This document shows, in pieces, positions 8,144 through 62,741 of a stretch of DNA of 64,000 nt. How positions within the stretch are numbered: the first letter of the stretch is position 1; every line of letters begins with the position of its first letter. The stretch covers positions 65,091 through 129,090 of the forward strand of contig JAGLGM010000001.1 of assembly GCA_023144035.1 (NCBI GenBank), written 5' to 3'. A program made the translations under genes and the position numbers. A model generated the notes under the pieces. The model searched no databases. It was not told the DNA's origin and worked only from the letters and a program-made list of their open reading frames with translations. The DNA comes from Candidatus Pacearchaeota archaeon. Its GTDB lineage: Archaea; Nanobdellota; Nanobdellia; Pacearchaeales; GW2011-AR1.

Positions 8144-8571
8144 TTTATTTGTTCCTTTATTCTCTTTAAAAAAATAAAAACTTTCATTGAATAATCACTA
8201 TCTAAAATTTTTCCATAATAAGTTACAGAATTCCTAAGATATCTAAGTTCATTCAAAAAAGAGGTCTCTGCATCAGAAAAACCTAATTCCATGAAATAAG
8301 AAATCTCTGCTTCATGAGAATAACTTCCAGAAGAATAATAACCTCTCATTAACATTTTTGATTTTATCCTTTCCATTATAATATCATAACAGTCTTTTAT
8401 AATGGAATTAGCATTTTTATTATTTATCCCAATTATTTTAATTCTTTCAACTAATCCCTCAAAAGAAATCTCTGATTCCTTTAATAAAAATTCTGCCCGA
8501 GATTTATCAGGAGATATTTTTCTTACTATATTTTTCTCCAAATAATAACTAAATTCTCTCGGCAACTTCAT
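8140..8571 (-). CDS. HEPN-domain protein (toxin-like partner of MNT)
   Basis: 143 aa, all alpha-helical. Rx4-6H-like region (RNSVTYYG...). ATGA overlap with the upstream MNT gene. Confidence 0.55.
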   Translation of the reverse strand: MKLPREFSYYLEKNIVRKISPDKSRAEFLLKESEISFEGLVERIKIIGINNKNANSIIKDCYDIIMERIKSKMLMRGYYSSGSYSHEAEISYFMELGFSDAETSFLNELRYLRNSVTYYGKILDSDYSMKVFIFLKRIKEQIK

Positions 8572-20100: not shown

Positions 20101-23100
20101 ATTCCTGTGTTTGAATTACCTGCATAATAACCTATTGCTGTTTGAATAGTTCCTGTATTTGATTTACCTGCTTGATAACCTATTGCAGTTTGATAAGTTC
20201 CTGTGTTTTGATAACCTGCATAATAACCTATTGCTAAAGAAATTAAAGTATCAGAACCTGCTGATTTTCCAACTCCAAAACTATTATTTGTTTCAAAATA
20301 TTCTATAAAATCATCACCACCAAATTTATATGTTTGGTCATTTGGAATTGTTAATCCTCCTGTGAAGTTTCCATCTCCAATTACATTTAATGTGTTTTGT
20401 GGGGTTGTAGTGTTTATACCAACTTTTTCAAAAAAACCATAATCAGAAGTAATATTATAACCTGTATGATTTATATTTTCATGCATGTGAAAAGAAAGAG
20501 GGTCTACTTCATTTCCTATCTTTGGAGTATAACCACTTGAAACATACATTGCATCAATTCTTAATTTGTGTTGAACATTTGCTCCATTGTTATGAGTTAT
20601 TTTAATCATTATTTTATCATCAATTAAATGGTCAGAAGCATCTCTCATATCTGCGCAAGCCCATCTAAAAGTCTCTCCAGACCTAAAAGTAATATAATCT
20701 TCCCAATAACCACCAGTGTCCCAAATTGCTAAATCAAAATCTTCATTATCAGAAATATATCTTACACAAATTCTATTAACCTCACTTGAAACATTTGCTG
20801 TAGTATTTGCATAATATTCTAAACCCTGCGGAACAACCTCTGTTAAATTATAAGTTACAGCATCATAATTATTATATTGTTGTGTTGAAGTCAAACTTCC
20901 CTCTGGCGTTCCATAAACTACAGTTTCAGTTACAAAAAACCAAACATCTCCTAATAATAGTTCATCTAATTTAGATTCATTAAAAGTTAAATTATATCCA
21001 TTAAAATCACTCCAAGTATCTGTTGTCCAATTAAATAATCCATTGAACCAGTTTCCTGTAACATTCCCTGCAATAGAAACATTACCAGAACTAAAATCCC
21101 CCTGAATCAAAGGAACAGCATTTACATTTGCTTGTTGAACTATGAATTGATTAGAATCATTATTATAATATCCTGCTTGATAACCTATTGCTACAACATC
21201 ATCACCTGTGTTATTATAACCTGCTTCATATCCAAATACAGTAATAGAATTACCAGAATTACGAAAAGCACTGCTTCCACCAATTGCAGTTACAGAAAAA
21301 CCTTCATTTTGATAAGCACTATTAGAACCAAATGCTACAATACTATTACCTAATTGATATCCACCTGCTCTATAACCAACAGCAGTAACATATTGTCCCT
21401 CATTATGATTAAGGGCTTGATAACCCACACCAACAGAATAAACACCTGGACTTGAATATCCTGCCCAAGTTCCAATTAAAACATTTCTACCTCCAGTATT
21501 TCCATCACCTGCTCTATAACCAACAGCTGTAACATCATTACCAGTATTTCCATCACCTGCTAAATAACCAAAATATGTAGATTGACTTGTAGGATTTCCA
21601 GATAATGTTCCAACAGATAATGATTTTAATGTATCATTAAATCTAAAGTTACTTGAATATATTTGACCATCTACTTCTAATTTATAATCTGGACTATCTG
21701 TCCCTATCCCAACACTATCTCCAGTATTAGTCAAGAAAACATCAGTTCCTGCCCTACTCCAAGTTGAAGTATTACCAGAGAATGTTCCGAAGAAATTAGA
21801 AGCAGTTACATTCCCTGCAATAGAAACATTACCAGAACTAAAATCCCCCTGAATTAAAGGAACAGCATTTACATTTGCTTGTTGAACTATGAATTGGTCA
21901 TCTAAAACATTATTTTCTCCTGCTTCATAACCAATGAAAACCCCATCATCTCCAGTATTATTATAACCTGCTTGATAACTAATTCCTGTAACTCTAAGTC
22001 CTGTATTTAGATAACCTGCATTATAACCAATAGAAGTTACAAAGGCTCCAGTATTCTTATAACCTGAATTATATCCTATTGAGACTAAAGATTCTCCAAT
22101 GTTCTCAAATCCTGCTTGATAGCCAAATAATGAAACACTTGCCCCAGTGTTTTCACTTCCAGAAGAATGTCCAAAAAAAGTACTTAGTGAACCAGTATTC
22201 TTATAACCTGCTCTATAACCAACAGCGTTAGAACCAGTCCCAGTATTTGTATGTAATGCTCCAATTCCAAAAGCATTTGAATAAGTTCCAGAATTAAAAG
22301 CTAATGCTTGATAACCAACACCACTAGAATATGCTCCAGTATTTGAAAAACCTGTTTGATAACCTAGAAGAGTTGTTTGAGTTAAGATATCTCCAGTTGA
22401 TGAACCAACAACAGTTGATTTTAAAGAATCACTCCAATTAAAATTAGTTGATTTTATACTTCCTATAACTTCAAGTTCTTCACCAGGATTATCAGTCCCT
22501 ATCCCAACATTATCTCCAATATTAGTTAAGAAAACATCAGTTCCTGCCCTACTCCAAGTTGAAGTATTACCCGAGAATGTTCCAAAGAAATTAGAAGCAG
22601 TTACATTCCCTGCAATAGAAACATTACCAGAACTAAAATCCCCCTGTATCAAAGGAACAGCATTTACATTTGCTTGTTGAACTATGAATTGGTCATCTAA
22701 AACATTATTTTCTCCTGCTTCATAACCTAAAGCAACAACATCGTCACCTGTGTTATTTCGTGTTGCTTCTGCACCCAAACCTGTAACCCTATGTCCTGTA
22801 TTATCATGACCTGCATTAGAACCAATTGCTGCTTGATAATCTCCTGTGTTTTCATAACCTGCAAGATAACCCATTGCTGTTTGATAACCTCCTTCATTTA
22901 ATTGACCTGCTTGATTACCTATTGCTGATTGATAGTTTCCAGTATTTGAACGACCTGCATTTACTCCTATTGCTGATTGAAAAGTTCCTGTGTTTTGATA
23001 ACCTGTATAAAAACCTATTGCTGATTGACCATAACCTTCATTTTCATAACCTGCACGATAACCTATTGCTACTTGATTAGTTCCTGTGTTTAAATAACCT

Positions 23101-26100
23101 GCATAATAACCAATACCTAAAGAATATTGAGTATCAGAACCTGATAATTTTCCAACTCCAAAACTCTTATTTGTTTCAAAATATTCTATAAAATCATCAC
23201 CACCAAATTTATATGTTTGGTCATTTGGAATTGTTAATCCTCCTGTGAAGTTTCCATCTCCAATTACATTTAAGGTGTTTTGAGGACTTGTCGTCCCAAC
23301 TCCTAAATAACCTGAACTAAAATCCCCCTGTATCAAAGGAACAGCATTTACATTATCCATTTTTAAAATAAATTGATTATCTAAAATATTATTTTCTCCT
23401 GCTTCGTGACCAATGAAAACTCCACTATCTCCTGTATTATTATAACCTGCTTGATATCCCATTGCAGTTTGATAAGTTCCTGTGTTTAAACGACCTGTTT
23501 CATAACCTATTGCTGATTGATAAACTCCTGAATTTTGATAACCTGCTTGATAACCTATTGCTGATTGAGAACTCCCTGTATTATAACGACCTGCTTGAGA
23601 ACCTATTGCTACTTGATTATTTCCTTCATTTCCATATCCAGCATAATAACCTATTGCTAATTGTAGACTTCCTGTGTTTGAATGACCTGTATAAAGCCCC
23701 ATTACAACTTGATTATCTCCTGTGTTTGAATGACCTGCAAAATAACCTACTGCTGATTGAGAACTCCCTGTATTTTGATAACCTGCCCAATAACCCAATG
23801 CTGATTGCCCTAAACCTTCATTTTCAAAACCTGCTTGATAACCTATTACTGTTTGACGAATACCTATATTTTGATAACCAGCATAATCTCCTATTGCTAA
23901 AGAACGCAAAGTATCAGAACCTGCTAATTTTCCAACTCCAAAACTATTATTTGTTTCAAAATATTCTATAAAATCATCACCACCAAATTTATATGTTTGG
24001 TCATTTGGAATTGTTAATCCTCCTGTGAAGTTTCCATCTCCAATTACATTTAAAGTATTCTGAGGACTTGTCGTACCGATACCTACATTCCCAGAACTAA
24101 AATCCCCCTGAATCAAAGGAACAGCATTTACATTTGCTTGTTGAACTATGAATTGGTCATCTAAAACATTATTCTTTCCAGCTTGATAACCTATTGCTAC
24201 AACATCATTCCCTTTATTATTTTCCCCTGCTTCATATCCTATTGCAGAAACCTGATTACCAGTATTATTCTTTGAAGCATCAGCCCCTATTCCTATAACA
24301 TTATCTCCTGTTTGTAATTGTCCAGCATAATAACCTACTGCAGTTAATTTATCTCCTTCATTTCCATATCCAGCATATTGTCCAACAGAAGTTAAATAAT
24401 TTCCAATATTTAAACGACCAGCATAATTTCCCACAGAAGTCATATAAGTTCCTGTATTAGAAAATCCAGCATAAGCACCAATTGCTAATTGATTAACACC
24501 ACTATTTACCCTTCCTGCTTGATTACCTATTGCTACTTGATTAGCACCAGAATTGGCAACACCTGCATAATAACCTATTGCAACCTCATCTTCCCCAGTA
24601 TTACTACTACCTGCAAAATAACCAATTGCTACTTGATTAGCACCAGAGCTTGAATCACCAGCTCTATAACCTACTGCTGTTTGTTTTGTTAAACCTAATG
24701 TACCTGCATCATCTCCTACAAAAGTATTAGCATAAACTGCATCTGTTCCTTTATCTAATCTTAAGGCAGTAAATCCATCATATAAATAAGCAGAATTATT
24801 ATCTATGTTTATATTGCCAACAACATCTAAATCATAAGAAGGACTATCTGTCCCTATCCCAACACTATCTCCACTATTAGTTAAAAAAACATCAGTTCCT
24901 GCCCTACTCCAAGTTGAAGTATTACCTTCCATTGTTCCAGTAAAATTACCAAAGAAATTATCTGCTGTAACATTTCCATCTACAACCACATTTTCATTAA
25001 AAGTAACTTCTGAATCTGTTACTTCAACTACATTTTCATCATTTGCAATTAAATGCAAACTTGAAGTCCCATAACCTAATCCATAACTTGTCTCCTCTTG
25101 ATTAGGTATAATTGTAGGATTTGTGCTTGAAGTTTCCTCATTAAGAATTGCTCCACTTTTAACAATATTTCCTGAAAGAAAATTCCCTGAAACACTCCCA
25201 AAAGTCACATTACTTGTAAAATTCGCAGGTTTCCAACCAGTTATTTGCGAAGAAGTTAATTCTAAAATATTAGTATCTCCAGCAATAATATTAACACTTG
25301 AACTCCCATAACCTATTCCATAACCTGTTTCTCCTTTATTTGGAAGAATTGTAGGAACAGTTGAAGTAGATTGAACATTAACAAACCCATATGAACCAGC
25401 CACAACACCAGTCAAACTCCCTTGAACAGTCATATCTTGAGTAATATTTACTGAAGAACTATTAAATTCAGCAACATTTATAGAATCAGCAATTAAATGA
25501 ATGCTTTGAGAACCATACCCCAGACCATAACCTGTTTCCCCTTGATTAGGCACAATAGTAGGATTTGTACTTGAAGACCCCTCATTAAGAATTGCTCCAC
25601 TTGTAGCCTCACTTCCTCTTAAAAAATCCCCTCCAAAAGTTACATTTCCTGTGAAGTTTCCATCTCCAATTACATTTAAGGTGTTTTGGGGGTCAGTAGT
25701 TCCAATACCAACTCTCGCAATTCCACCAGTTTCATTAATATTTAATCCATTTACTCCACCAGCAACTAAAGATAATGTATCTTCTCCTGCCCATCCAATA
25801 CCTGTATCTATATCTCCTCTACTTGGTTCTATTGAAGGATAATAAGAAGTTGCTCCTGCTGATTTAAGTCTTGGTCCGCTACTATCTGAAGAATAAAAAC
25901 CCCCTGCAGCAAACCAAAACCTTACACTTCCAGCAGCAAATACTCCTAAAACATCATCTCCATACCTTTCTCCAAAACCAGTATCCCCATCTCCAAATGA
26001 AATAACTGGTTCATTAATTCCAGTATTTGATAAAGATATTTTAGATGCATATAAATCCCCAGTAAAATTCCCATCTCCAATTACATTTAAAGCACTTAGA

Positions 26101-26789
26101 GGATTATCTGTCCCTATCCCAACATTATCACCAATATTAGTTAGAAAAACATCAGTTCCTGCCCTACTCCAAGTTGAAGTATTACCTTCCATTGTTCCAG
26201 TAAAATTACCAAAGAAATTATCTGCTGTGATATTTCCAGTAGTAGTTATATTTCCTATTCCAATAACTTCTCCACTAAAATCTAAATCAGTCACAAACAA
26301 CTTAGAAATCCTTGAAGTTAAACTTCCAAGAAACCCAAAAAAACCAGTACCAGTTGTAGTCACATTATAAGCACCCATATCAAGATTTTGATCTATTTCA
26401 ACTCCACTCAAAGTTATATTCTGTGCTCTAAAAGAATAAGGAGTCCGAGCAATTTTTGAAGAGTCCTTTAAAGCACCATCTCTGTAATAACAAAGATAAT
26501 ATTGCTCATCATAATCAAGAGTAACACTTGGAAGATAATATGAAATTATCCCACGCGTATCAGTTAAAAGAGTTGTAGAATTAGTATAAATTATATTGTC
26601 ACAAGTAGAAGTTGTTGAAATATTAAATACAAAATCAAAAGTCCCTGTAGTAATTGTTCCATTATCAAATGTTGTTTGAATATTTAAATGAATGTCATCA
26701 GTAATTACAGCAGCCATTGTAAAAGAAATTGAAAGAGTTATAACTAAAGTTATTACTAAAATATTATAAAAATGCCTTATTAACTTCAT
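11151..26789 (-). CDS. Giant (5212 aa) repetitive surface fibre protein. Phage tail-fibre-like beta-helix/beta-roll repeats. C-terminal intramolecular chaperone (Peptidase S74-like) domain
   Basis: Single uninterrupted 15.6-kb ORF. N-terminal signal/TM (MKLIRHFYNILVITLVITLSISF). More than 15 copies of VGIGTxxPxNTLNVIGDGNFTG. Long arrays of 14-residue AIGYxAGxxNTGxxQx repeats (YadA-head/Hep_Hag-like). Several ~70-aa modules (FIVQQANVNAVPLIQGDFSSGNVSIAGNVTASNFFGTFSGNTSTWSRAGTDVFLTN...). Hundreds of N-x-S/T sequons. C-terminus (11151..~11600) matches endosialidase chaperone: SSIRWKENI...YFNWKD...IGFIAEELGKIVPEAI...YATGVRSGYLTPILVQATKGQQELI. Confidence 0.85.
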   Translation of the reverse strand: MKLIRHFYNILVITLVITLSISFTMAAVITDDIHLNIQTTFDNGTITTGTFDFVFNISTTSTCDNIIYTNSTTLLTDTRGIISYYLPSVTLDYDEQYYLCYYRDGALKDSSKIARTPYSFRAQNITLSGVEIDQNLDMGAYNVTTTGTGFFGFLGSLTSRISKLFVTDLDFSGEVIGIGNITTTGNITADNFFGNFTGTMEGNTSTWSRAGTDVFLTNIGDNVGIGTDNPLSALNVIGDGNFTGDLYASKISLSNTGINEPVISFGDGDTGFGERYGDDVLGVFAAGSVRFWFAAGGFYSSDSSGPRLKSAGATSYYPSIEPSRGDIDTGIGWAGEDTLSLVAGGVNGLNINETGGIARVGIGTTDPQNTLNVIGDGNFTGNVTFGGDFLRGSEATSGAILNEGSSSTNPTIVPNQGETGYGLGYGSQSIHLIADSINVAEFNSSSVNITQDMTVQGSLTGVVAGSYGFVNVQSTSTVPTILPNKGETGYGIGYGSSSVNIIAGDTNILELTSSQITGWKPANFTSNVTFGSVSGNFLSGNIVKSGAILNEETSSTNPTIIPNQEETSYGLGYGTSSLHLIANDENVVEVTDSEVTFNENVVVDGNVTADNFFGNFTGTMEGNTSTWSRAGTDVFLTNSGDSVGIGTDSPSYDLDVVGNINIDNNSAYLYDGFTALRLDKGTDAVYANTFVGDDAGTLGLTKQTAVGYRAGDSSSGANQVAIGYFAGSSNTGEDEVAIGYYAGVANSGANQVAIGNQAGRVNSGVNQLAIGAYAGFSNTGTYMTSVGNYAGRLNIGNYLTSVGQYAGYGNEGDKLTAVGYYAGQLQTGDNVIGIGADASKNNTGNQVSAIGYEAGENNKGNDVVAIGYQAGKNNVLDDQFIVQQANVNAVPLIQGDFSSGNVGIGTTSPQNTLNVIGDGNFTGGLTIPNDQTYKFGGDDFIEYFETNNSFGVGKLAGSDTLRSLAIGDYAGYQNIGIRQTVIGYQAGFENEGLGQSALGYWAGYQNTGSSQSAVGYFAGHSNTGDNQVVMGLYTGHSNTGSLQLAIGYYAGYGNEGNNQVAIGSQAGRYNTGSSQSAIGYQAGYQNSGVYQSAIGYETGRLNTGTYQTAMGYQAGYNNTGDSGVFIGHEAGENNILDNQFILKMDNVNAVPLIQGDFSSGYLGVGTTSPQNTLNVIGDGNFTGGLTIPNDQTYKFGGDDFIEYFETNKSFGVGKLSGSDTQYSLGIGYYAGYLNTGTNQVAIGYRAGYENEGYGQSAIGFYTGYQNTGTFQSAIGVNAGRSNTGNYQSAIGNQAGQLNEGGYQTAMGYLAGYENTGDYQAAIGSNAGHDNTGHRVTGLGAEATRNNTGDDVVALGYEAGENNVLDDQFIVQQANVNAVPLIQGDFSSGNVSIAGNVTASNFFGTFSGNTSTWSRAGTDVFLTNIGDNVGIGTDNPGEELEVIGSIKSTNFNWSDSLKSTVVGSSTGDILTQTTLLGYQTGFSNTGAYSSGVGYQALAFNSGTYSNAFGIGALHTNTGTGSNAVGYRAGYKNTGSLSTFFGHSSGSENTGASVSLFGYQAGFENIGESLVSIGYNSGYKNTGAFVTSIGYNAGYLNTGLRVTGISYQAGYNNTGDDGVFIGYEAGENNVLDDQFIVQQANVNAVPLIQGDFSSGNVSIAGNVTASNFFGTFSGNTSTWSRAGTDVFLTNTGDSVGIGTDSPDYKLEVDGQIYSSNFRFNDTLKSLSVGTLSGNPTSQSTYFGYLAGDGNTGNDVTAVGYRAGDGNTGGRNVLIGTWAGYSSPGVYSVGVGYQALNHNEGQYVTAVGYRAGGYQLGNSIVAFGSNSAYQNEGFSVTAIGGSSAFRNSGNSITVFGYEAGYNNTGDDVVAIGYQAGYYNNDSNQFIVQQANVNAVPLIQGDFSSGNVSIAGNVTGNWFNGLFNWTTDTWSDFNGYNLTFNESKLDELLLGDVWFFVTETVVYGTPEGSLTSTQQYNNYDAVTYNLTEVVPQGLEYYANTTANVSSEVNRICVRYISDNEDFDLAIWDTGGYWEDYITFRSGETFRWACADMRDASDHLIDDKIMIKITHNNGANVQHKLRIDAMYVSSGYTPKIGNEVDPLSFHMHENINHTGYNITSDYGFFEKVGINTTTPQNTLNVIGDGNFTGGLTIPNDQTYKFGGDDFIEYFETNNSFGVGKSAGSDTLISLAIGYYAGYQNTGTYQTAIGYQAGKSNTGTIQTAIGYYAGNSNTGINQVVIGHSAGYQNTGSSQSALGYNAGRQNSGAYQSAIGYLAGRENTGSFQTVIGYYAGYLNTGHRVTGIGYYATQNNTGDDVVALGYQAGLNNVLDDQFIVQQANVNAVPLIQGDFSSGNVSIAGNVTASNFFGTFSGNTSTWSRAGTDVFLTNSGDNVGIGTDNPSVKLEVSQSVDGKGIQLNGYDDKSAENVQMYVNSVGQGIIMGTNALTFVGNSALILRSTGGNINFDTGDVFYWRDSDDGYTQRMRLASATGVLDLWDSSLNNNVRINPNGNSYINSGNVGINTSTPQNTLNVIGDGNFTGNFSVDNTDLFVDSSTGNVGIGTSTPTRNLDLFESGGGSLHVRFSNDDTGVGSSDGVLFGMSTVEELIFWNYEDTNMRFATNGLERMRIDNTGNVGINTLTPQNTLNVIGDGNFTGGLTIPNDQTYKFGGDDFIEYFETNNSFGIGKLAGSDTLYSLAIGYQAGFSNTGNRQIAIGYQAGLSNTGNQQSAVGYRTGQANTGFNQAALGAYSGYLNTGDYQSAIGYYAGYQNNGTSQVAIGYYAGYDNKADYQSVFGLNAGRENEGVGQSAIGYYAGYSNIGSNQVVFGPYSGHSNTGINQVAIGYQAGYSNQGAYQSTIGFRAGYSNEGSNAIGIGYEAGRLNTGHTITGIGYQAGYNNTGDDVVALGYQAGLNNVLSNQFIVQQANVNAVPLIQGDFSSGNVSIAGNVTASNFFGTFSGNTSTWSRAGTDVFLTNSGDNVGIGTDNPQSLLNLNGTLGSLSGGLTFGDGDTGFYESLDDRLNFVLGGVAKFALKNNRYFGSNVAYGGSLKAEAPTLASLTITFEGDENTGIATAIDGTPDQLSLVAGGVEGIRIDETGGVARVGINTTTPQNTLNVIGDGNFTGNFSVDNTDLFVDSSTGNVGIGTSSPEDKLHIIDTTSGNNIQIFSIEGNQGEIKMKSDDLYDRMSFGLVHNTIPTSGRGVFYTSISGETYARFNFDGVGKLGWGAGSTDIDVDLYRDSADKLRTSDTLIVDGNVGIGTDNPERILHISGSDNIRSRVDTTSNDGSAGFLFNAPANGSDSQLNFATHSDGYAAVPNYAGKGGIQSSGGNLFLTAYTPSTDIEFYVGGRTDSHLRMILKDGGNIGINTATPQNTLNVIGDGNFTGNVTSQVDFCIEGGNCLSSVSGSGSDATWLANWTAYNTTWSSGGDVTWLANWTAYNTTWSSTTNTSYALVNEPLWSSNYTAYNNSWSQGSTWVSNWTAYNTTWSSTTNTSYVPYTGANTNLVLGDNNLSVGGTDFFVNNNDGNVGIGTDNPDTILHLKDSDTHITLQSTGVLDASYGYTIVKDGNGDTIGFSGFDSGSNSDYTIRTTDVADGIEFQTNGSNSRMYINQAGNVGIGTDSPDYNLEIEDATAQIGLTSTDTNGIPFRFLSDDDGSQGRFRLREEGVSASTIMTWLENQNIGIGTDIPGTKLEVNGDIGIGRIAGGYTFRETVGGVERAGIHSDATNELIFKYGAAAEGMRIDSAGNVGIGTDSPGDLLELKKTTAAPNLILNRVQELGDDYSVGGIQFKAKDSTVAAIYSHISGTIEDSAVLLFVTSTGGSISEQMRIDKDGNVGIGTTSPGLNLFGSTGDMTGLTQHIYNSGGNANLVMEGDSVNVIYGDLGGGADDKGILFNVNGGIAKYTSLTDAIGTRVDNILVMDLGTGNVGIGTSSPEASLSIKAPSASNTPGASRLLEFREAGGAGSDWFSFRETAGADLVLDRSPDAGSSWYAIMHWDVNTGNVGIGTTSPQNTLNVIGDGNFTGTIYSNENAVLTSYTETDPYWTGNKSLVAFLGEAETITADWDNTANPWAVNEVHADLLTATEGDAAYAPIGEPLWSANYSARTGTGDVVFSTSPTFVTGITVPANSISDDELNEGATFEWTAAHTFSSTAPITMASGTDIRWVDTGTYIDGTATGMVIESDDTLAMNADTSVTITSPASSFSGDLTVTGGDITFGGTAISESDVGIIDDGTITLTSEVTGTLPVANGGTGLTASVEDSIMVGSGTSTWQTKAIPDCTSGKLLYTVSSNTFSCGTDAIDGGDANLLDGLDATHFYNASNPEGYTSNTGDITGITTTAGTSGLNGGCTSGTCALTFDATDVDGTGLTGSGSVLSVDLGTAIDYTEITVMTEANLYTLLNDVTEFWENGDSVTGAVGANEVWAVGWDGDTSVPEKDDIYDWASGVTTTEMDYLQGVSSDIQTQINTKGATLTDEASLYATLSDVTQFWENGDSVTGAVGANEVWAVGWDGDTSVPEKDDIYDWASGVTTTEMDYLQGVSSDIQTQINTKGATLTDEASLYATLSDVTEFYESGDKVGDADTLDTMDSLDFVAVIGDTMTGDLRIDKADATIYFDTSGTGDAAIRVSGEDLQFIEPEDGNKVWGYFDDDVGLYLTGAPNLNAAGTGTFGGDLVVDTSDLFVDSSTSRVGIGTDSPLNPLHVIGTTNVSGGDLYVDGGDKPIVIYGGYYSAFSDGTIIRMMGMDGTKMLLGPVEDTDAELQIYVGGGYKHSFDIDGKVGINTITPQNILNVVGDGNFTGNFSVDNTDLFVDTSTNRVGIGTANPTEKLHVVGSQIIDPNAAAVGLKIFGDSTFRATFYQDANDIFNIYNYDEDAPAIADLNLGKSSGNAGLYYDASADKWGIGTNSPNALLSLSSAGGANMLSLTDTETTETAANPILSFYYGATPTRLGYIGFGSESHSDLFLNSDLAGIRMRDSTGEVFYINNGNVGIGDTTPLSRLRIGNSGTDASTYSVYIHDGDNTGIYSYGTTYGVYGSGGTTGVYGIGTATGVYGDGNTGMYGTGTTYGVYGDGGTADFYSPHNTYGFGSSIRWKENITEINSQIALDKILNIEGSYFNWKDTGNHDIGFIAEELGKIVPEAIIYENASNSSNWYIDKNGTKMLYATGVRSGYLTPILVQATKGQQELIISQNNTINQLLLDNQAMKKSLCNLGAKEWC
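13096..13587. repeat. Exact tandem duplication of a 246-bp (82-aa) unit inside the giant gene
   Basis: The protein segment FWENGDSVTGAVGANEVWAVGWDGDTSVPEKDDIYDWASGVTTTEMDYLQGVSSDIQTQINTKGATLTDEASLYATLSDVT occurs twice back-to-back. The DNA copies are essentially identical. Confidence 0.85.
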
Positions 26790-27417: not shown

Positions 27418-27443
27418 GAGCTTATAGCTTAGCCTGGTTAAAC
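27418..27443 (+). repeat. Degenerate copy of the 5' 26 nt of tRNA-Ile (gagcttatagcttagcctggttaaac)
   Basis: 4 mismatches versus 27489..27514. Lacks the rest of a tRNA. Confidence 0.55.
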
Positions 27444-27488: not shown

Positions 27489-27609
27489 GAGCCTATAGCT
27501 CAGCCTGGTTAGAGCGCTGGTCTTATATGAATGCAGTCCATGAGGATTGTTCTCTTTTGGATTCGTCTAAGAGAGCCAGAGGTCCTCGGTTCAAATCCGA
27601 GTAGGCTCA
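27489..27609 (+). tRNA. tRNA-Ile (anticodon UAU) with ~46-nt intron at canonical position 37/38
   Basis: Hand-folded. Acceptor GAGCCTA/TAGGCTC+A. D-arm GCTC-AGCCTGGTTA-GAGC. Anticodon stem CTGGT/GCCAG, loop CTTATA|intron|A. T-arm CTCGG-TTCAAAT-CCGAG. Anticodon call depends on the intron boundary. Confidence 0.6.
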
Positions 27610-27807: not shown

Positions 27808-28038
27808 ATGACAAATATAACTCTTTCAATTGATAATGAAGTTTACAATAAAATGCGTAAATTTTCTGAGATAAAATGGAGTGAATTTGTAAGAAAAATT
27901 ATTAAACAACGAATTGATGAAATGGAAAAAATAGATAAAGAAGGCTGGAAAAACGCAAAATTTTTAGGAGATGAAAAATTATTAGAACAATCATGGTCCT
28001 CAAAAGAAGATGAAAAAGCTTTCTCTTATTTGCAATGA
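27808..28038 (+). CDS. Ribbon-helix-helix antitoxin (paralog of 4015..4245)
   Basis: 76 aa. MTNITLSIDNEVYNKMRKFSEIKWSEFVRKIIKQRI. 4-nt overlap with the downstream MazF toxin gene. Confidence 0.6.
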   Translation: MTNITLSIDNEVYNKMRKFSEIKWSEFVRKIIKQRIDEMEKIDKEGWKNAKFLGDEKLLEQSWSSKEDEKAFSYLQ

Positions 28039-28364
28039 AATTAAAAAGATTTGATATAGTTCTTGTTGATTTTCCTTTTAGTGATTTAAAAAAAACAAAG
28101 AAAAGACCAGCAATGGTTATCAATTCTTTAGAAGGAGAAAATTCAATTTTATGTCAAATTACTACAAAAAATAGAAAAATTAAAAAATATGAAATACAAC
28201 TTAAAAAAGAATATTGTGAAGGAGAAATACAATTTGATTCACTAATTTATGTTGATATGATTTTTACATTACACAAAAGTCTTATTTACAGAAAAATTGG
28301 AGAAATAAAAGATATCCAAACAAAAGAAGAGATTAACAATAAAATTAAATTAACTTTAAAATAA
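28035..28364 (+). CDS. MazF/PemK-family toxin
   Basis: 109 aa. [24 protein letters not shown] PemK signature. Confidence 0.7.
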
Positions 28365-28365: not shown

Positions 28366-28563
28366 ATGGCAAAACATAAAAAACTGTATAGAAATACAAA
28401 GAATAAAATGATTGCTGGAGTTTGTTCAGGAATAGCAGAATATTTAGACGCAGATCCTACAATTGTAAGATTAATTTGGGCAATTGCAACTCTAATCTCA
28501 ATAGGAGCAGGTATAATTGCATATTTAATAGCATGGATAATTGTCCCAGAAAAAACAAAATAA
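28366..28563 (+). CDS. PspC-domain membrane protein
   Basis: 65 aa. [38 protein letters not shown] matches the PspC domain. Followed by a TM helix. Confidence 0.75.
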
Positions 28564-28672: not shown

Positions 28673-28790
28673 GCCCCTATAGTTCAGTGGCCAAGAATGC
28701 TGCCCTTTCAGACTGAAACTTTGTTTCATCTTCCCTTAAAAAAGGAAGTAAAGAAAGGCAGTGACCCGAGTTCGAATCTCGGTAGGGGCG
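28673..28790 (+). tRNA. tRNA-Glu (anticodon UUC) with 45-nt intron
   Basis: Acceptor GCCCCTA/TAGGGGC+G. D-arm GTTC-AGTGGCCAA-GAAT. Anticodon stem CTGCC/GGCAG, loop CTTTCA|intron. T-arm CCGAG-TTCGAAT-CTCGG. Confidence 0.8.
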
Positions 28791-28835
28791 TTTCTAAAGA
28801 AAAAACCTTAAAATTGCAAGATTCTTGGATTATTT

Positions 28836-29117
28836 ATGAAAAAATTTGATGAATTAAAATATTGGTTGGATTTAAATGAACATATTAAAACTGCTTTGGC
28901 TTCGGCTGGTCTTGGAATTGCTATAGTTGGATTGAATTCATTGACACAAAACCCCACTTTGAAAGTTCTTACTATAATCGCTTTAGTTTTTTCAATTAGC
29001 ATAATAATTATGCAATTAATTTTAGGATTTAGGCAAATAAAAAGAGATTGCAAATTAAGAAAAGAATACAAAGTAAAATATCAAAGGCAATTGGATAATT
29101 TAAAAAGAACCGGTTAA
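28836..29117 (+). CDS. Hypothetical two-TM membrane protein (inside tRNA-Glu-linked island)
   Basis: 93 aa, two hydrophobic helices. No family recognised. Confidence 0.4.
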   Translation: MKKFDELKYWLDLNEHIKTALASAGLGIAIVGLNSLTQNPTLKVLTIIALVFSISIIIMQLILGFRQIKRDCKLRKEYKVKYQRQLDNLKRTG

Positions 29118-29242
29118 AAATGAATAACTACTTACTCACAAGTTTAATCACCTTAATTTATACTTTTTGAATTTGGAGAAGATTAATTCCTTCTTTTTTC
29201 TTAATAAGATAATATTAAATATGATAAGAATATCTTAATTTA

Positions 29243-29608
29243 ATGTGTAAAAATTATATTGATTTTATAAATAAAGAGTTTAAAAAATGTTCGGCAGAAG
29301 AAATTGAAATTGGAAAAACAGCAGAATTCCATATTAAAAGAGGTAGAAAATCTCTTTCTGAAATAAAAAAAGAGCTTTTAAATTGCAATTCTCTTAAAGT
29401 TGCTAACAAAGAAAAAATATCAGGAGAAACAAGATACACTCTTTATTTTATTTACACAAGAAGAAAAGGAACAAGATATACAATTACATTTAGAGGGGAG
29501 AAGATAAGATTAATAACTACAATTCCTCTAGGAAAAAAGAGTATTCAAAAAGCAGAGAAAAAGTTGAAAAAAACATTTAAAAAGACGAATCCCTTTAATT
29601 TAAAATGA
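29243..29608 (+). CDS. Hypothetical protein (island gene)
   Basis: 121 aa, basic. Stop overlaps the next ORF. Confidence 0.4.
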   Translation: MCKNYIDFINKEFKKCSAEEIEIGKTAEFHIKRGRKSLSEIKKELLNCNSLKVANKEKISGETRYTLYFIYTRRKGTRYTITFRGEKIRLITTIPLGKKSIQKAEKKLKKTFKKTNPFNLK

Positions 29609-29976
29609 TAGAAAGAGAATTTAAATATTTATATAATGAAGAAGATGATATTCTATCTATCTATGATGAGCAACATAAACCTTTTGAATTTGTAGAACTC
29701 TCTGATTTTTTAGCTCTTGGTTTGAATAAAGATGGAAGTTTTAATTGTCTTGAAATTTCAGATGCTTTTAACTTTTTTAAGATAGTGAATAAAAAGATAG
29801 ATAAAGATTTTTTAAAGAATTTAAAATCAACAAAATTAAGACAAGAAATATTCAGGGGAGCTTTCTATTTATTTTTAGTCTTATTTTCTAAAGAGGGAAA
29901 AGAAATAGAACAATCATTACCTCCTTTATTTCAGTGGGAATATGAAAGTCCTTTACTTAAAACATTAAAACATTAA
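29605..29976 (+). CDS. Hypothetical protein (island gene)
   Basis: 123 aa. Overlaps the previous ORF by 4 nt. Confidence 0.4.
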   Translation: MIEREFKYLYNEEDDILSIYDEQHKPFEFVELSDFLALGLNKDGSFNCLEISDAFNFFKIVNKKIDKDFLKNLKSTKLRQEIFRGAFYLFLVLFSKEGKEIEQSLPPLFQWEYESPLLKTLKH

Positions 29977-29997
29977 CTCCCTTTGTAAATACCTTAG

Positions 29998-30013
29998 CTT
30001 ACTAACCTCTCGG
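29998..30013 (+). repeat. 16-bp copy of the tRNA-Glu(UUC) 3' end (tctcggtaggggcgtt); att-like
   Basis: Identical to the tRNA 3' terminus at 28776..28791. Confidence 0.6.
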
Positions 30014-30119
30014 TAGGGGCGTTATTCTACTAGACTTATATAATTTATTCATAAACTAAAATACAACAAAAGATTTATATAATAATATCAATTGATACTA
30101 TCATATTAAAGAAATTAAA

Positions 30120-30401
30120 ATGCAATTATTGAAAAAAAATCCCCCTATAAGAAGTCCAACATTACAAACAGTATTAATGGTTGAAAAATTTATTGACAAA
30201 AATAGCGGAGAATATAAAAAAACAGAATTATTTAGAAAACTCCCTAAAAAAGTAATGTGGCAAACATTCCAAACCATAATGAGATATTTAGAAGATATTC
30301 ATAAAATAGCTTATGATAATAAAGATTATGTTGTTTATATTTGGAACCCAGAGTTTGCAAAGAAGTTTGAAGGGAGAGAAGACTTAATATGGAAGGAATA
30401 G
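30120..30401 (+). CDS. Hypothetical protein, possible antitoxin of the following RelE-like gene
   Basis: 93 aa. Overlaps the downstream gene by 13 nt. Confidence 0.35.
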   Translation: MQLLKKNPPIRSPTLQTVLMVEKFIDKNSGEYKKTELFRKLPKKVMWQTFQTIMRYLEDIHKIAYDNKDYVVYIWNPEFAKKFEGREDLIWKE

Positions 30402-30712
30402 TTATTTTTAATGATTTCTCTTTGAAAAATGCATTTGAAATTCTGAAAGATACTGATAAAGAATTACATTCTCAAATAGACAAGGCTACAAGTGATATAA
30501 GAGAGAATGTTTTTTGCGGAAGAAATGTGAAAAAAAAGTTGATACCTAAAAAATTTTCTAGGAAATATGGAATTGATAATTTATGGATATATAATTTAAG
30601 AAGTGGATGGAGATTATTATATTCTGTGTCTTCTCCAGATAAGATTAAGATTCTAGCAATAGTTCTTAATTGGATGAACCATAAAGAGTATGAAAAGTTG
30701 TTCAAATTCTAA
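30389..30712 (+). CDS. RelE/ParE-like toxin (tentative)
   Basis: 107 aa. C-terminal WRLLYSVSSPDKIKILAIVLNWMNHKEYE resembles RelE/ParE YRxxYxV...IxIlxIxxHxxxY. Confidence 0.4.
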   Translation: MEGIVIFNDFSLKNAFEILKDTDKELHSQIDKATSDIRENVFCGRNVKKKLIPKKFSRKYGIDNLWIYNLRSGWRLLYSVSSPDKIKILAIVLNWMNHKEYEKLFKF

Positions 30713-30722
30713 AATTAATTAA

Positions 30723-30766
30723 TAAGAAAGGCAGTGACCCGAGTTCGAATCTCGGTAGGGGCGTTT
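30723..30766 (+). repeat. 44-bp perfect copy of the tRNA-Glu(UUC) 3' exon (aagaaaggcagtgacccgagttcgaatctcggtaggggcgtttc); attR-like
   Basis: Identical to 28751..28794. Spans from the anticodon-stem 3' strand to the tRNA 3' end, the classic archaeal integrase att core. Confidence 0.8.
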
Positions 30767-30857
30767 CAGAGTATAAAACTCTCAAAATTAAATCACATTT
30801 CTATACGACTACATAGAAAGGCTTATAAATAATGTAGACGTACATTTATTATATAAA

Positions 30858-31325
30858 ATGGTATATACAGAAATAAAAAAAAGAAATAAAAAAAAATATT
30901 ATTATAGAGTAACTTCTATTAGAAAAGGTGTAAAAGTAAATAAAAAAAGAAAATATTTAGGAGTAAATATATCTAAAAAAGAATTGCAAGAAAAAGAAAA
31001 AGAAGCAGACAAATTTTTAATATCACAAAAAAACCAAATAAAACAAAAAGCTATTGAAGAGCTAACACAAAAAATCATAAAAATTTTAAAAGAAAATAAT
31101 ATAAAAAAAGCAGGTATTTTTGGAAGTTATTCTAGAAAAGAACAAAAAAAGAATAGCGATATTGATATCTTAATTCAACCAACAAAAAAAATGGGGTTTA
31201 AATTTGCTGGTTTAGAAATTCAACTCACAAAAGCATTAAAGAAAAAAGTTGATTTAGTAAGTTATAATGGAATAAGTCCTTATTTAAAAGATAAAATATT
31301 AAGTGAAGAAATAAGAATAATATGA
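30858..31325 (+). CDS. Nucleotidyltransferase (MNT) antitoxin of HepT/MNT pair
   Basis: 155 aa. GIFGSYSRKEQKKNSDIDIL pol-beta NTase motif. Imperfect inverted repeat AATGTA-gacg-TACATT 12 bp upstream. Confidence 0.7.
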   Translation: MVYTEIKKRNKKKYYYRVTSIRKGVKVNKKRKYLGVNISKKELQEKEKEADKFLISQKNQIKQKAIEELTQKIIKILKENNIKKAGIFGSYSRKEQKKNSDIDILIQPTKKMGFKFAGLEIQLTKALKKKVDLVSYNGISPYLKDKILSEEIRII

Positions 31326-31669
31326 ATAAAAATAATCTAGCTTTTATTGAACATATATTAGAAAGTATAAATGCAATAATGGAATTTTCTAAAGATATTA
31401 ATAAAAAAGAATTAATTTCAAATAGATTAAAACAAAGTGCAATAGTGAGAGAAATAGAAATTATAGGGGAAGCTGTTAAAAACATTTCTAAAGATCTTAA
31501 AAATAAACATCCAGAAATTGAATGGAAAGAAATTGTCGGTACAAGAGATAAAATGATTCATCATTATTTTGGTGTGGATTTAAATATTATTTGGGAAATA
31601 ATTAAAACTGATTTACCTGATTTAAAAAAACATATACTAAAAATAAAAGAAAATTTAAAGAAAGATTAA
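31322..31669 (+). CDS. HepT-like HEPN toxin (DUF86)
   Basis: 115 aa. RDKMIHHYFGVDLNIIWE is the DUF86/HepT Rx4HxY signature. 4-nt overlap with MNT. Confidence 0.7.
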   Translation: MNKNNLAFIEHILESINAIMEFSKDINKKELISNRLKQSAIVREIEIIGEAVKNISKDLKNKHPEIEWKEIVGTRDKMIHHYFGVDLNIIWEIIKTDLPDLKKHILKIKENLKKD

Positions 31670-31685
31670 TTAACAAAATTCAAAA

Positions 31686-33050
31686 TTACTTAACTTCTTC
31701 AAGTTTTTCATAACCTGGAAGCTTCATTGTTTTTGCAATTTTTCTCGCAGAATCTACATGATTATAATGTTTTTCCACAGCTCTTTTATTATCTTCTAAT
31801 ACTGAATTTGCCATTTCAATTCTTCTTTCTATTCCTAATTTATTTGTAAATTCTTTATAAGCTTCTTTATCTGAAAGTATATGTTCAATATCTTGTATTC
31901 TATTTACCCACTTATCTCCATAAGATTTAATTAACTCATCATTATAAAAATGCTTAAAATTCATTTCTCTTTGTTCAAAATCAGGATGTACTTCTGTAAG
32001 ATATCTTCCAACCATAGGAGTTCCAGAAACTTGAGATTCAATATATCCAAGTCCAAAACCTTCTCGCTCACTCGGACTTAAAGCTAAATCAGAAATATGA
32101 TATAAATTTCCAATATTAAAATTAACCCCATCTATAAATTTTGATATTTCTCCTAAAGAAACAGGAATATTATGTTTTTCTGCAACAAATTCTGAAATTC
32201 TTTGATATGTGTTTAATTGAGGATAAGGTTTTTCTCCATCAATAGATGCTGTTACAAGTAACTTATATTTTTCCCCTGTAATTTCATTTAAATTTCTTAT
32301 AATAGGAAATGCTACTTCAATTGCCTTTCTCTCTACAATTCTATTTGGACAAGAAATAATTTTTTCTCCAGAATCAACAATCCCTTCTTTTTCTAATAAT
32401 TCTCTAAAAGCCTCATCTTTTCCATCATCTTTCTTATAAAAGTTATCACAAACTATTGGATTTCTTATTACATTTATTTCTTTATCATAATATTTTTGCA
32501 TTCTTATTTTTGCAGGAGAAGTTAAAACAGATGTTGAAAAATTAGGTGTTCTTGGAAATGCTTGTTGAGTATGTTCAAAAACCTTATTAAATTTATTCCA
32601 ATCTTCTTTATGATCCCAAATATAATCATGATTTCTCCAATGAACTGGTTTATTAACTGTTTCTGTAAATTCTTTAAAAGCTTTAGTTGCATAAGGATTT
32701 ATTCCCCTTATAGGATTTTCAATTATAATATAATCTAAATCTTTTGTCAAATCAACTAATCCTCCAAGCAAATACCGATAAGAATCAGAATTAAACAAAG
32801 GCAATTCTCTTTGATCATGTTCATCAAAAACTCCTTTTTTAAATTCTTCACCAATAAATGTTAGTTCCATATTGGGATAAATAACATTTCCTCCTTGAAC
32901 AATACTATTATCTACCACAGTATTAACTCCTAATGAACTCTCATTCCAAAAATAATGAACTACTCCTACTTTTAAGGGTTTTTCACTAAGAACTGCATCT
33001 TGCTCTCCTGAATTTGAATTTTTCCCTAAAGCTGTATAATTTTTCGTCAT
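31686..33050 (-). CDS. GT-B fold glycosyltransferase (GT4-like)
   Basis: 454 aa. C-terminal EREGFGLGYIESQVSGTPMVGR matches the GT4 E-x7-E/EGFGL motif. N-terminal half is atypical. Confidence 0.45.
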   Translation of the reverse strand: MTKNYTALGKNSNSGEQDAVLSEKPLKVGVVHYFWNESSLGVNTVVDNSIVQGGNVIYPNMELTFIGEEFKKGVFDEHDQRELPLFNSDSYRYLLGGLVDLTKDLDYIIIENPIRGINPYATKAFKEFTETVNKPVHWRNHDYIWDHKEDWNKFNKVFEHTQQAFPRTPNFSTSVLTSPAKIRMQKYYDKEINVIRNPIVCDNFYKKDDGKDEAFRELLEKEGIVDSGEKIISCPNRIVERKAIEVAFPIIRNLNEITGEKYKLLVTASIDGEKPYPQLNTYQRISEFVAEKHNIPVSLGEISKFIDGVNFNIGNLYHISDLALSPSEREGFGLGYIESQVSGTPMVGRYLTEVHPDFEQREMNFKHFYNDELIKSYGDKWVNRIQDIEHILSDKEAYKEFTNKLGIERRIEMANSVLEDNKRAVEKHYNHVDSARKIAKTMKLPGYEKLEEVK

Positions 33051-33155
33051 TTTATCAATTTATAATATATTTTACTTAATATATACTCAAATATATACTT
33101 TTATTTATAAATCTTTTGTAACTTTTATAAAATAGTAAAGATTTTTTAGAAAAAA

Positions 33156-34571
33156 TCACAACTTTTTAACCATATAAGTGTCTTTTAATCTATATTTTAG
33201 TCTCCTATAATATTCTCTAACACCAATTCCAGAAATAATAGACAATTCTTTTATATTTTTATTCTTTACAATATTCTCTGCTTCACTTATAAGCCATTTA
33301 CCTAAACCACTATGTTGTCCTAATTTTTTACCTTTTTCACCTAATTTTAAAGCTTGACCATAAACATGAATCTCTCTAATAATTGCTTTTTTATTGCCCT
33401 CTTTACTAGAGGATACACCTTCTTTAAGACCTACTTGGTTGGGTGTTACAATTCTTAATCTTAAAAGACCAAACAAAAGATAATCTTTATTTACAATTTC
33501 TAAAAAATATTCATCACCTTTTGAAGCTTTATATTTTGTAATTTTCAAATCTAAATCTAAATTAATGTCTCTTTTATCCCGCAAAGCAAACCCAATTTCC
33601 CTATATCTTATTTCTTTTAATTGACTTTTCTTTTCTCTTAATTCATTTTCTATTTCTTTACGTAAATCAATTCTAATTGTACCTGCAACAAGATATTCTG
33701 GAGGTATTTCACGCATTACACGCATTACCCTACAATATTTAGGGACCAACTTTAACATTTCAATCAACACTTTTTCAATCTTTTCTCTACTATAAGGTTT
33801 ATATTTTTTCTTCCAATACATTTTTTCAAGTTCAGAACAAGGCATAACTTGACAAGGATATAATTTTAGTTGATCAGGTTTAAATTTAGAATCTGAAAAC
33901 AATTTTTTAAATAATTCTAAGTCTTTTTTAATATTGCTCCCAGGCAATCCTAGCATAATATGGTATCCAATTTTAAATCCTGCATTTTTTAGATCTTCTG
34001 TTGCTTGAACAACATCTTGAACAGTATGTCCTCTCTTAACTTTCTCATAAATCTTATTATCAATAATCTGAACTCCTAATTCTACACGAGTAACTCCCCA
34101 TTTTCTCATCTTTTTTATATGGTCTGAACAAACATCTGGTCTAGTTTCAACGCAAAGAGCAACACACCTATGCTTTGAACTCTCATTTTTCTTTTGAGCT
34201 TCCATCAAACTACCAGATTCACTATTATTTAACCCATCATAACAAGATTTTATAAATTTGTTTTGAAACTTTTCAGAATATTCTAAAAAAGTCCCGCCCA
34301 TAATTATTAATTCAATCTTCTCTGTTGGATGATTCATTGCTTTGAAAGCCTTTAACCTATCTACCACTTGTCTATAAGCATCATATTTAACTTCCATTGC
34401 CCTCATAACAACAGGTGATTTAGGAGTATAGCTTTGCGGAACATTTAAATTAGGACAATAAACACATGCACCATGATTACATTTACGAGGAGGCAACATT
34501 ACAGCTACAGGAGTTACTCCTGAAATTGTTTTTGTGGGTTTTCTAATTTCTCCTTTCTTTGGTTTTAACAT
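33156..34571 (-). CDS. elp3: Elp3-family radical-SAM/GNAT tRNA uridine-34 carboxymethyl-modification enzyme
   Basis: 471 aa. Cys cluster CNHGACVYC (Cx4Cx2C as in Elp3). Radical-SAM TIM barrel. C-terminal acetyltransferase-like domain (IREIHVYGQALKLGEK...). Confidence 0.75.
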   Translation of the reverse strand: MLKPKKGEIRKPTKTISGVTPVAVMLPPRKCNHGACVYCPNLNVPQSYTPKSPVVMRAMEVKYDAYRQVVDRLKAFKAMNHPTEKIELIIMGGTFLEYSEKFQNKFIKSCYDGLNNSESGSLMEAQKKNESSKHRCVALCVETRPDVCSDHIKKMRKWGVTRVELGVQIIDNKIYEKVKRGHTVQDVVQATEDLKNAGFKIGYHIMLGLPGSNIKKDLELFKKLFSDSKFKPDQLKLYPCQVMPCSELEKMYWKKKYKPYSREKIEKVLIEMLKLVPKYCRVMRVMREIPPEYLVAGTIRIDLRKEIENELREKKSQLKEIRYREIGFALRDKRDINLDLDLKITKYKASKGDEYFLEIVNKDYLLFGLLRLRIVTPNQVGLKEGVSSSKEGNKKAIIREIHVYGQALKLGEKGKKLGQHSGLGKWLISEAENIVKNKNIKELSIISGIGVREYYRRLKYRLKDTYMVKKL

Positions 34572-62731: not shown

Positions 62732-62741
62732 TTAATTTAAA

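Follow-up and report, generated by a model that had tools for sequence, protein, structure and literature searches.

In a 64,000-nucleotide stretch of a Candidatus Pacearchaeota genome (contig JAGLGM010000001.1, positions 65,091 to 129,090; hereafter the window), we investigated a tRNA-Glu(UUC) gene and the island of DNA that separates it from a partial copy of itself further downstream. The window has a G+C content of 28.5%, its proteins carry NCBI locus tags of the KAI04_ series, and the same DNA is held in ENA as ZHAN22-2_SAMN18200496 scaffold_3. The tRNA-Glu(UUC) gene (28673..28790, + strand) matched the full Rfam model RF00005 with 54.6 bits, and its cloverleaf gave a fold z of -3.0. It contains a 45-nt intron (28711-28755) at the canonical position 37/38 and aligned to the intronless tRNA-Glu genes of L015, L032, and L039 (we designate related loci by L numbers). 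Because three related genomes (L015, L032/L014, and L039) have a tRNA-Glu(UUC) gene without an intron, the intron of the window gene is, as judged from these alignments, lineage-specific. Introns of 45-80 nt were observed in four of the five tRNA genes of the window, namely Ile-UAU (27489-27609), Glu-UUC (28673-28790), Thr-GGU (61126-61259), and Glu-CUC (62509-62661). ARAGORN missed all four and called only the intronless tRNA-Gln (62029-62101, minus strand), and Rfam was used instead.

The 3' part of the tRNA-Glu(UUC) gene recurs twice downstream. A 44-bp sequence (AAGAAAGGCAGTGACCCGAGTTCGAATCTCGGTAGGGGCGTTTC) is present once inside the functional tRNA gene (28751..28794, + strand; attL) and again, without a single mismatch, at 30724..30767 (+ strand; attR), where the 3' exon is copied and the 5' half of the tRNA is missing. 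Between these two attachment (att) sites lies an exact 16-bp copy of the tRNA 3' end (TCTCGGTAGGGGCGTT; 30008..30023, + strand), the middle att. A preliminary description of this DNA had recognized the tRNA and both kinds of downstream copy, all of which are real; however, it placed the second 44-bp copy one base too early (30723-30766) and the 16-bp copy at 29998-30013, and it had the long repeat start at the 3' strand of the anticodon stem. The repeat instead starts inside the intron: it takes in the final 5 intron nucleotides, all 35 nt of the 3' exon, and 4 nt of trailer, so that identity begins at the boundary between anticodon loop and intron and runs to the 3' end. The chance of finding 5 intron nucleotides in the repeat is roughly 0.5%, and their presence would therefore mean that either attP, the att site of the incoming element, or the recombination event itself involved an intron-bearing tRNA allele. 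We also considered a longer att with a degenerate copy of the intron upstream of attR, and the similarity was not significant (p about 0.09).

The 16-bp copy spans the last two bases of the T-loop and the 3' strand of the T-stem through the discriminator, plus 2 nt. Its edges are sharp: only 2/16 of the bases upstream match the tRNA, and the DNA to the left is unrelated to it. In 100 dinucleotide-preserving shuffles, 0.00 matches to the 16-mer were expected with up to 2 mismatches, and chance accounts for neither the 16-bp nor the 44-bp copy. The base composition of the island is the same as that of its flanks, and we observed no inverted repeats at the ends of its segments. The layout, an intact tRNA gene at one end and exact direct copies of its 3' part further on, is that of a tRNA-integrated element, and the retention of attL and attR with integration and transfer genes missing is that of a cis-mobilizable element (CIME). 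The junctions of the island were crossed, with no more than 4 mismatches, by contigs of three assemblies (ERZ23498471, ERZ23498475, and ERZ23498528); the short contigs matched the window exactly over their whole length, and two long contigs differed from it at 3-4 positions. We therefore conclude that the structure is real and not a misassembly. Logan unitigs ended exactly within the 44-bp repeat, as expected of a k=31 graph.

The middle att divides the island into two segments, which we call X and Y. Segment X (28795..30007, + strand), bounded by attL and the 16-bp copy, encodes a small membrane protein and a toxin-antitoxin (TA)-like pair. The membrane protein (93 aa; 28836..29117, + strand) starts after a 41-nt spacer, has one strong hydrophobic helix (approximately residues 40-66), and showed only sub-threshold family matches (SLATT_5, E=0.0086; SieB, E=0.029). 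The pair consists of a 121-aa protein (29243..29608, + strand) and a 123-aa protein (29605..29976, + strand) whose genes overlap by 4 nt; genes of these two families were adjacent in every locus that we fetched. The 121-aa protein belongs to a small family (47 representatives among 1.84 billion proteins). It has no Pfam match itself, yet 6/37 of its distant family members match DUF4258 (PF14076; best 9.6e-6) and 2/37 match BrnT. Its AlphaFold2 model (pLDDT 77.7) gave weak Foldseek matches to RelE, YoeB/ParE, BrnT, and MqsR (E>=0.02, TM 0.35-0.5). DUF4258 is listed among the BECR-fold toxin families of the RelE/ParE superfamily that occur in type II TA modules (PMC11980606). The 123-aa partner is DUF2283-like: 6/7 members of its family match PF10049 (best 3.6e-4), and the window protein does so with E=0.059. 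The toxin-like gene comes first in the pair, the partner has a hydrophobic C-terminal extension, and 31 nt separate the end of the pair from the 16-bp att. On the basis of these family and fold matches, we regard the X pair as a putative operon of RelE-superfamily TA type, a DUF4258-like toxin with a DUF2283-like antitoxin.

Segment Y (30024..30723, + strand) is essentially a single TA-type operon with its promoter/operator, a delimitation supported by DNA similarity to L039, L035, and L037. The stretch at 30074..30109, upstream of the operon, contains an inverted repeat (I14) with 21-nt arms that are 86% complementary; this palindrome falls in a stretch conserved with L039 and is probably the operator. 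The first gene encodes a 93-aa putative antitoxin (30120..30401, + strand) with no family match in Pfam, PHROGs, or NCBIfam, and it overlaps by 13 nt with the gene for a 107-aa putative toxin of the RelE/ParE/YoeB family (30389..30712, + strand). Homologous upstream partners of 74-101 aa are present in L035, L037, L038, and L039. The 107-aa protein has 258 homologs, the best 120 of which share 56-86% identity with it, and most of the named ones belong to Pacearchaeota or Nanoarchaeota. In 24/30 members of this family we detected PF05016 (ParE_toxin) and in 10/30 PF06769 (YoeB_toxin) at E<=0.01; the window protein itself, with E=0.032, fell short of this cutoff. The Y pair is thus a putative TA-type operon of the RelE/ParE superfamily, the assignment being made at the level of the family. 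The RelE-like pair of the preliminary description stands at the family level, and the small proteins that it left as unknown turn out to include a second pair of RelE-superfamily type, that of X. Both operons resemble the RelE/ParE (BECR-fold) type II modules that include DUF4258 (PMC11980606) in being small, overlapping, and bicistronic, in their family-level Pfam matches, and, for Y, in the palindromic putative operator; they differ in that the window proteins themselves lie below the Pfam thresholds and in that the toxin-like gene precedes its partner in the X pair.

We then compared the locus with related genomes. A genome scan for the tRNA 3' end, with one genome per species, yielded three tRNA-Glu loci, one of which (L015, Pacearchaeota RS_7_11) is syntenic with the window. 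Upstream of tRNA-Glu the window carries a gene with a PspC domain (28366..28563, + strand; Pfam PspC, E=1.7e-27), preceded by a ribbon-helix-helix (RHH)/MazF pair and the intron-containing tRNA-Ile(UAU). The PspC gene, our left synteny anchor, lies directly upstream of tRNA-Glu in L015 and adjoins it in L039. Downstream of attR, the window carries an MNT/HepT toxin-antitoxin pair (30858..31669, + strand; Polbeta/NTP_transf_2, E=1e-15; HepT-like, E=7.7e-30), which the preliminary description had correctly put just outside attR, a 454-aa glycosyltransferase-like gene (31686..33050, - strand; PHROG glycosyltransferase, 1.6e-12, plus NCBIfam matches), and an ELP3-like radical-SAM gene (33156..34571, - strand; Pfam Radical_SAM and Radical_SAM_C). 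The last is 72% identical to its L015 counterpart and served as the right anchor. In L015 the order is PspC, an intronless tRNA-Glu(UUC), 25 bp, radical-SAM, and methyltransferase, and the island is missing. Judged by this gene order, L015 is a relative with an unoccupied tRNA-Glu site, the uninterrupted locus that had been proposed as a check on the integration. The window is 4.3 kb longer than L015 between tRNA-Glu and the radical-SAM gene; an island at tRNA-Glu is therefore borne out, while the roughly 2 kb first given for it falls short of the full difference. We found no further att or tRNA remnant above shuffled background in 30768-33160 or upstream of the tRNA. The flank just outside attR (AAATCACATTTCTATAC, 30790-30806) resembles the region of the radical-SAM stop codon in the window (33150-33170) and in L015 (approximately 5550-5570). 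This very short resemblance may be a trace of the ancestral tRNA/radical-SAM junction.

Relatives of the X pair lie in two other tRNA-linked settings. L016 and L017, which come from a relative, share the synteny LemA-PPDK-DUF357-amino-acid-kinase with the window at 45-55 kb (the kinase is 64% identical). Here a 1.4-kb islet encodes an X pair together with a zinc-ribbon membrane protein of 138 aa and is bordered on both sides by 28 bp of the tRNA-Thr(GGU) 3' end, repeated directly and perfectly; the tRNA-Thr(GGU) of the window (61126-61259) has no islet. The 138-aa protein of L016 and the 93-aa membrane protein of the window did not align. The second setting is an element of 5.34 kb at the 3' end of tRNA-Asp(GUC) in L040 (5025-10436; JGI 3300003358 C687J50192_1000189), also present in L041-L045, so that contigs from six samples carry it. 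Its X pair homolog is 72.7% identical in DNA to window positions 29304-29976. The element is laid out as attL, integrase, Rep_1, several small genes, an X-type pair, 40 nt, and attR, and it also carries a winged-helix gene. The integrase, beside attL, is intact and unsplit (388 aa; PF00589, 44.1 bits, with no other family match), and the Rep_1 rolling-circle initiator has 402 aa (44.3 bits). In attR, 18/22 bases are identical, 12 of them as an exact run. The X pair occupies the distal end near attR, in the same orientation and at a similar distance as in the window (40 nt versus 31 nt). Neither Rep nor integrase gave a tblastn match in PLSDB plasmids or INPHARED phages, and we regard the L040 element as a candidate for an undescribed integrative plasmid family of Pacearchaeota.

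In each of the three X-pair loci, the T-stem/T-loop region is where att identity sets in: at the last two T-loop bases in the window, at the last T-stem base before the T-loop in L016, and at the GTTC of the T-loop in L040. Taken together, these comparisons suggest that segment X is most likely the remnant of a T-loop-targeting integrative element.

The Y pair has a different set of relatives. In L039, a metagenome-assembled genome of Nanoarchaeota, a 79-aa gene and a Y-type pair lie between long direct repeats (at least 142 nt at 93% identity) that consist of the tRNA-Ile(UAU) 3' end and DNA downstream of the tRNA. In L035 (5708-6324) and L037 (5741-6324), both from Pacearchaeota, the pair occupies a conserved site that nearly abuts the tRNA methyltransferase gene Trm5/TYW2 downstream and has a variable gene on the other side; no tRNA or repeats lie nearby. 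The DNA similarity of Y to L039, L035, and L037 (75-78%) is confined to approximately 30067-30718, which is the operon with approximately 50 nt of promoter/operator. A Y-type pair was tied to tRNA-derived repeats in 2/4 of the genomes examined, and because it sits at differing chromosomal sites (that of L035 and L037 versus the tRNA-linked ones), the sequence comparison identifies the Y pair as a mobile operon. We found no integrase-bearing carrier of the Y pair among the loci examined; cargo shared with an autonomous integrase-bearing element was seen for X only, not for Y. In L039 we also observed a 50-nt tandem repeat after tRNA-Ile (5046-5258 and 6372-6533) with hairpins of the GGTACCC-TTTC-AGGGTACG type, one 19-nt unit of which interrupts the attR-like tRNA fragment at 6360-6405. 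The hairpin unit may be a small palindromic mobile repeat.

From the repeats, the family-level identities of the cargo, the unoccupied site in L015, and the homologous cargo in an integrase-bearing element and in tRNA-flanked islets, we infer a recombination mechanism, an order of events, and a history of deletions. With fair confidence, we interpret the locus as two integrative elements that entered the 3' end of tRNA-Glu(UUC) in tandem and have since decayed, leaving their TA-type modules. The preliminary description had likewise proposed an integrated island, possibly from two nested or tandem integrations, that was either degraded or mobilized in trans; two degraded tandem integrations are the reading that the empty site in L015, the tRNA-flanked cargo of L016 and L039, and the integrase-bearing element of L040 now reinforce. 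Each element would have entered by site-specific recombination between its attP and either the tRNA gene or an att copy already there, and each integration would have rebuilt the complete tRNA gene, with a partial copy remaining at the distal end. Segment X would derive from a small integrative element resembling a rolling-circle plasmid, of the L040 type (tyrosine integrase, Rep_1, and a DUF4258/DUF2283 pair by attR), and would correspond to such an element minus its integrase-to-Rep portion. Segment Y would derive from a different element with a different integrase specificity, that of the 44-bp att. Deletions would then have removed the integrase, replication, and other genes, so that the TA operons and one small gene remained. 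Streamlined DPANN genomes should shed neutral DNA quickly; the TA operons would have survived because loss of an addictive module is counter-selected, and they would thus be what persists longest as an element decays in a streamlined genome.

Integrase subfamilies reportedly prefer particular sublocations within tRNA genes, as Williams is said to have found in 2002. The two att sublocations of our locus, T-loop and anticodon loop, therefore suggest two integrases and two separate events. Either order of events could be envisaged. Y might have entered the tRNA with a 44-bp core, followed by X entering attL with a 16-bp core; alternatively, X might have come first, and the attP of Y might have recombined with the 16-bp attR of X, so that the left copy would keep just 16 bp and the right copy would have all 44 bp, contributed by attP. 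Both orders would reproduce the 44/16/44 pattern. A three-step model of integration, decay to a CIME, and accretion has been put forward for bacterial elements (PMC5704250), and by analogy the same history would fit our locus. The locus is of a known kind; it would not surprise a specialist and does not overturn current understanding.

Several observations weigh against an array of two decayed elements. No integrase, replication, or structural family match was obtained in Pfam, PHROGs, or NCBIfam for the five open reading frames (ORFs) of the island, all co-directional with the tRNA, in agreement with the integrase-free island first described; nor did the examined parts of the 64-kb window contain an integrase or a fragment of one. 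We found no attP in a scan of viral contigs with the 34-nt 3' exon or in a metagenome scan with the 21-nt tRNA 3' end, the latter of which returned only ordinary tRNA genes and unrelated sequences, and neither set of scans revealed an autonomous tRNA-Glu-specific element. Nor did viral contigs match relatives of the 121-aa, 123-aa, or 107-aa protein, whether the scan used single sequences or a profile. Among the assembled contigs, there was neither a circular form nor an empty-site variant from the same population, and each junction-crossing contig that we fetched carries the island, that is, the occupied state. The unoccupied site is known from one syntenic relative only, L015, at 72% protein identity, and the extra 4.3-kb block is larger than the att-bounded island, since it also holds MNT/HepT and the glycosyltransferase gene. 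The sole integrase-bearing relative, L040, targets tRNA-Asp rather than tRNA-Glu and has only the pair in common with X. Lastly, Y has been trimmed to within 43 nt and 11 nt of its att sites, yet the 44-bp repeat has kept its perfect identity; such tight trimming is not what random decay would predict, and a cassette-like mobile unit fits it about as well.

Such a unit is the basis of the foremost alternative, namely that X, Y, or both are still mobile as integrase-less, att-flanked TA cassettes (CIME-like) that form a growing array and are excised and re-integrated by an integrase that another part of the genome or an incoming element supplies. The perfection of both 44-bp att copies speaks for it, as does the make-up of Y, which consists of little more than one operon with an att site on either side; X and Y pairs also occur as tiny att-flanked, integrase-less islets at three other tRNAs (L016 and L039), and bacterial CIMEs are known to be mobilized in this manner (PMC5704250). 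However, a circular junction or empty-site contig was seen in no sample, and the examined parts of the window have no integrase that could act. Furthermore, genomes differ in where the islet ends, in how the pair is oriented, and in which small gene accompanies it, and the att sequences belong to different tRNAs, so that one cassette cannot simply hop between them. We therefore consider ongoing mobility unlikely. Excision of the whole island is predicted to leave an empty-site junction of ...GGAAGTAAAGAAAGGCAG...GGGGCGTTTC joined to AGAGTATAAAACTC and a circle junction of ...AAATTCTAAAATTAATTAAT joined to AAGAAAGGCAG...GCGTTTC and then to TAAAGAAAAAACC. Excision of X only should give a chromosome with ...GTTCGAATCTCGGTAGGGGCGTT joined to ATTCTACTAGAC and a circle with GCTTACTAACC, TCTCGGTAGGGGCGTT, and TCTAAAGAAAAAACC in succession, and excision of Y only should give a chromosome with GCTTACTAACC, TCTCGGTAGGGGCGTT, and TCAGAGTATAAAAC in succession. 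The broader proposal that integrase-less, att-flanked TA cassettes of Pacearchaeota are moved in trans and stack behind tRNA genes is a long shot in our estimation; if true, such cassettes would be a tRNA-anchored analog of the TA-rich cassette arrays of integrons.

A second alternative does without a dedicated integrase and has circular DNA with a tRNA fragment inserted by homologous (Campbell-type) recombination. The L039 repeat lends it some appeal, being long (at least 142 nt at 93%) and extending well past the tRNA, more like a homology-driven insertion than a core att. In the window, however, repeats of 16 bp and 44 bp would give homologous recombination little sequence to act on, the boundaries of the repeats fall at the classic integrase sublocations (T-loop and anticodon loop), and an integrase-bearing relative exists in L040. 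We consider this route very unlikely.

Split or shared tRNA halves are known in DPANN-like archaea, for example the tRNA-Glu halves of Nanoarchaeum equitans. With this precedent, and given the perfect 44-bp copy with its 5 intron nucleotides, the downstream 3' exon could be thought functional, as the 3' half of a split tRNA or as a spare, and the repeats kept by selection. We rejected a split tRNA gene as scarcely credible: matches to the 5' end of the tRNA in the window were limited to the intact Glu(UUC) and Glu(CUC) genes, leaving no orphan 5' half; a bulge-helix-bulge with a partner would need more than 5 intron nucleotides; the 16-bp copy could have no function; and relatives lack the copies. 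Equally far-fetched is a casposon- or transposon-like target-site duplication or an assembly artefact. A duplication of approximately 15 bp at a tRNA 3' end does resemble the target-site duplications of casposons; however, the segment ends have no terminal inverted repeats, the window gave no match to Cas1, PolB, or a transposase, a repeat of 44 bp exceeds the length of such a duplication, and contigs of three assemblies cross the junctions. We rejected both.

The kind of integrase involved in an array of decayed elements was another matter, and the preliminary description had invoked an SSV-type (Sulfolobus spindle-shaped virus) enzyme. SSV1 reportedly has a 44-bp att that covers the downstream half of a tRNA gene, like the long repeat here, and SSV elements can stay trapped in the chromosome. 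SSV-type ('suicidal') integrases, described from elements of Sulfolobales and Thermococcales (PMC8371274; PMC7253208), are split into int(N) and int(C) upon integration, and neither half is present at the att sites of the window. The DNA adjoining attL, the middle att, and attR consists of the 41-nt spacer with the membrane-protein gene and of the ends of the TA operons, with no integrase-like ORF; no island ORF matched PF16795 (E<=1), and the L040 enzyme is an unsplit PF00589 protein next to attL. We therefore rejected an SSV-type element. The position of the unsplit L040 integrase next to attL recalls instead the pNOB8 or 'classical' type II class (PMC8371274). Closest in layout is PYG1 of Pyrococcus yayanosii, an integrated element flanked by 44-bp repeats of tRNA-Gln (PMC9897764): in both PYG1 and the window, a complete and a partial tRNA copy bracket the DNA in between, and a 44-bp repeat runs from the anticodon-loop region to the 3' end. 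In contrast to PYG1 and pNOB8-type elements, the window element has no integrase, is approximately one tenth of the size, and resides in a DPANN host; moreover, its target tRNA has an intron, 5 nucleotides of which are included in the repeat. With bacterial CIMEs and their tandem accretion at tRNA genes (ICESt1-type elements of Streptococcus; PMC5704250), our locus shares the tandem arrangement with a second element at the same target gene, but here the host is archaeal, and the elements, at 1.2 kb and 0.7 kb, are much smaller. Moreover, their att cores are unlike each other in both length and sublocation, and any cis-mobilization is putative.

The locus offers a sequence-level example of elements integrating, stacking, and decaying in a DPANN archaeon, a group whose mobile elements have barely been described. 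It also links a scar to a candidate intact source, the 5.3-kb element with integrase and rolling-circle Rep at tRNA-Asp in other Pacearchaeota metagenomes. The locus further shows that an att site can reach into the intron of a tRNA gene, which is relevant to the long-standing idea that introns protect such genes against integration. For tRNA-Thr of Caldiarchaeum, intron gain through integration or recombination has been proposed (PMC3293823); by analogy, it is a possibility that the lineage-specific tRNA-Glu intron, the last 5 nt of which lie inside the 44-bp att, was gained through such events.

Partial copies of tRNA ends were also observed beside three other tRNAs of the window, with 0 matches expected by chance. 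Sixty nucleotides beyond the tRNA-Gln gene there is a 14-nt exact copy of its 3' end (61967-61980, - strand), and approximately 55 nt beyond tRNA-Glu(CUC) there is a 16-nt copy of its 3' end with 2 mismatches (62718-62733, + strand). Both resemble att scars left behind by elements of which nearly everything has been deleted. At tRNA-Ile(UAU), a 23-nt copy of the 5' end with 2 mismatches (27418-27440) precedes the gene by 71 nt; a comparable 5' copy of 19 nt (4764-4782) is found 108 nt upstream of tRNA-Ile in L039 but not in L015 or L032. The 5' copy may be a scar of integration on the 5' side or a partial duplication. Together, the copies at the three tRNAs suggest recurrent integration and decay in this genome.

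Apart from the island, too, the window is rich in TA-type genes: a PIN gene (3606-4049, - strand), a MazF gene (5259-5591, - strand), and a second MNT gene with a 143-aa partner (8140-9116, - strand), in addition to the RHH/MazF pair (27808-28364, + strand) and the MNT/HepT pair (30858-31669, + strand) on either side of the locus. A phage-type metallopeptidase gene lies at 4375-4749. Finally, a single ORF of 5,212 aa with internal repeats and a Peptidase_S74 match occupies 11151-26789 (- strand), and presumably encodes a giant surface protein.

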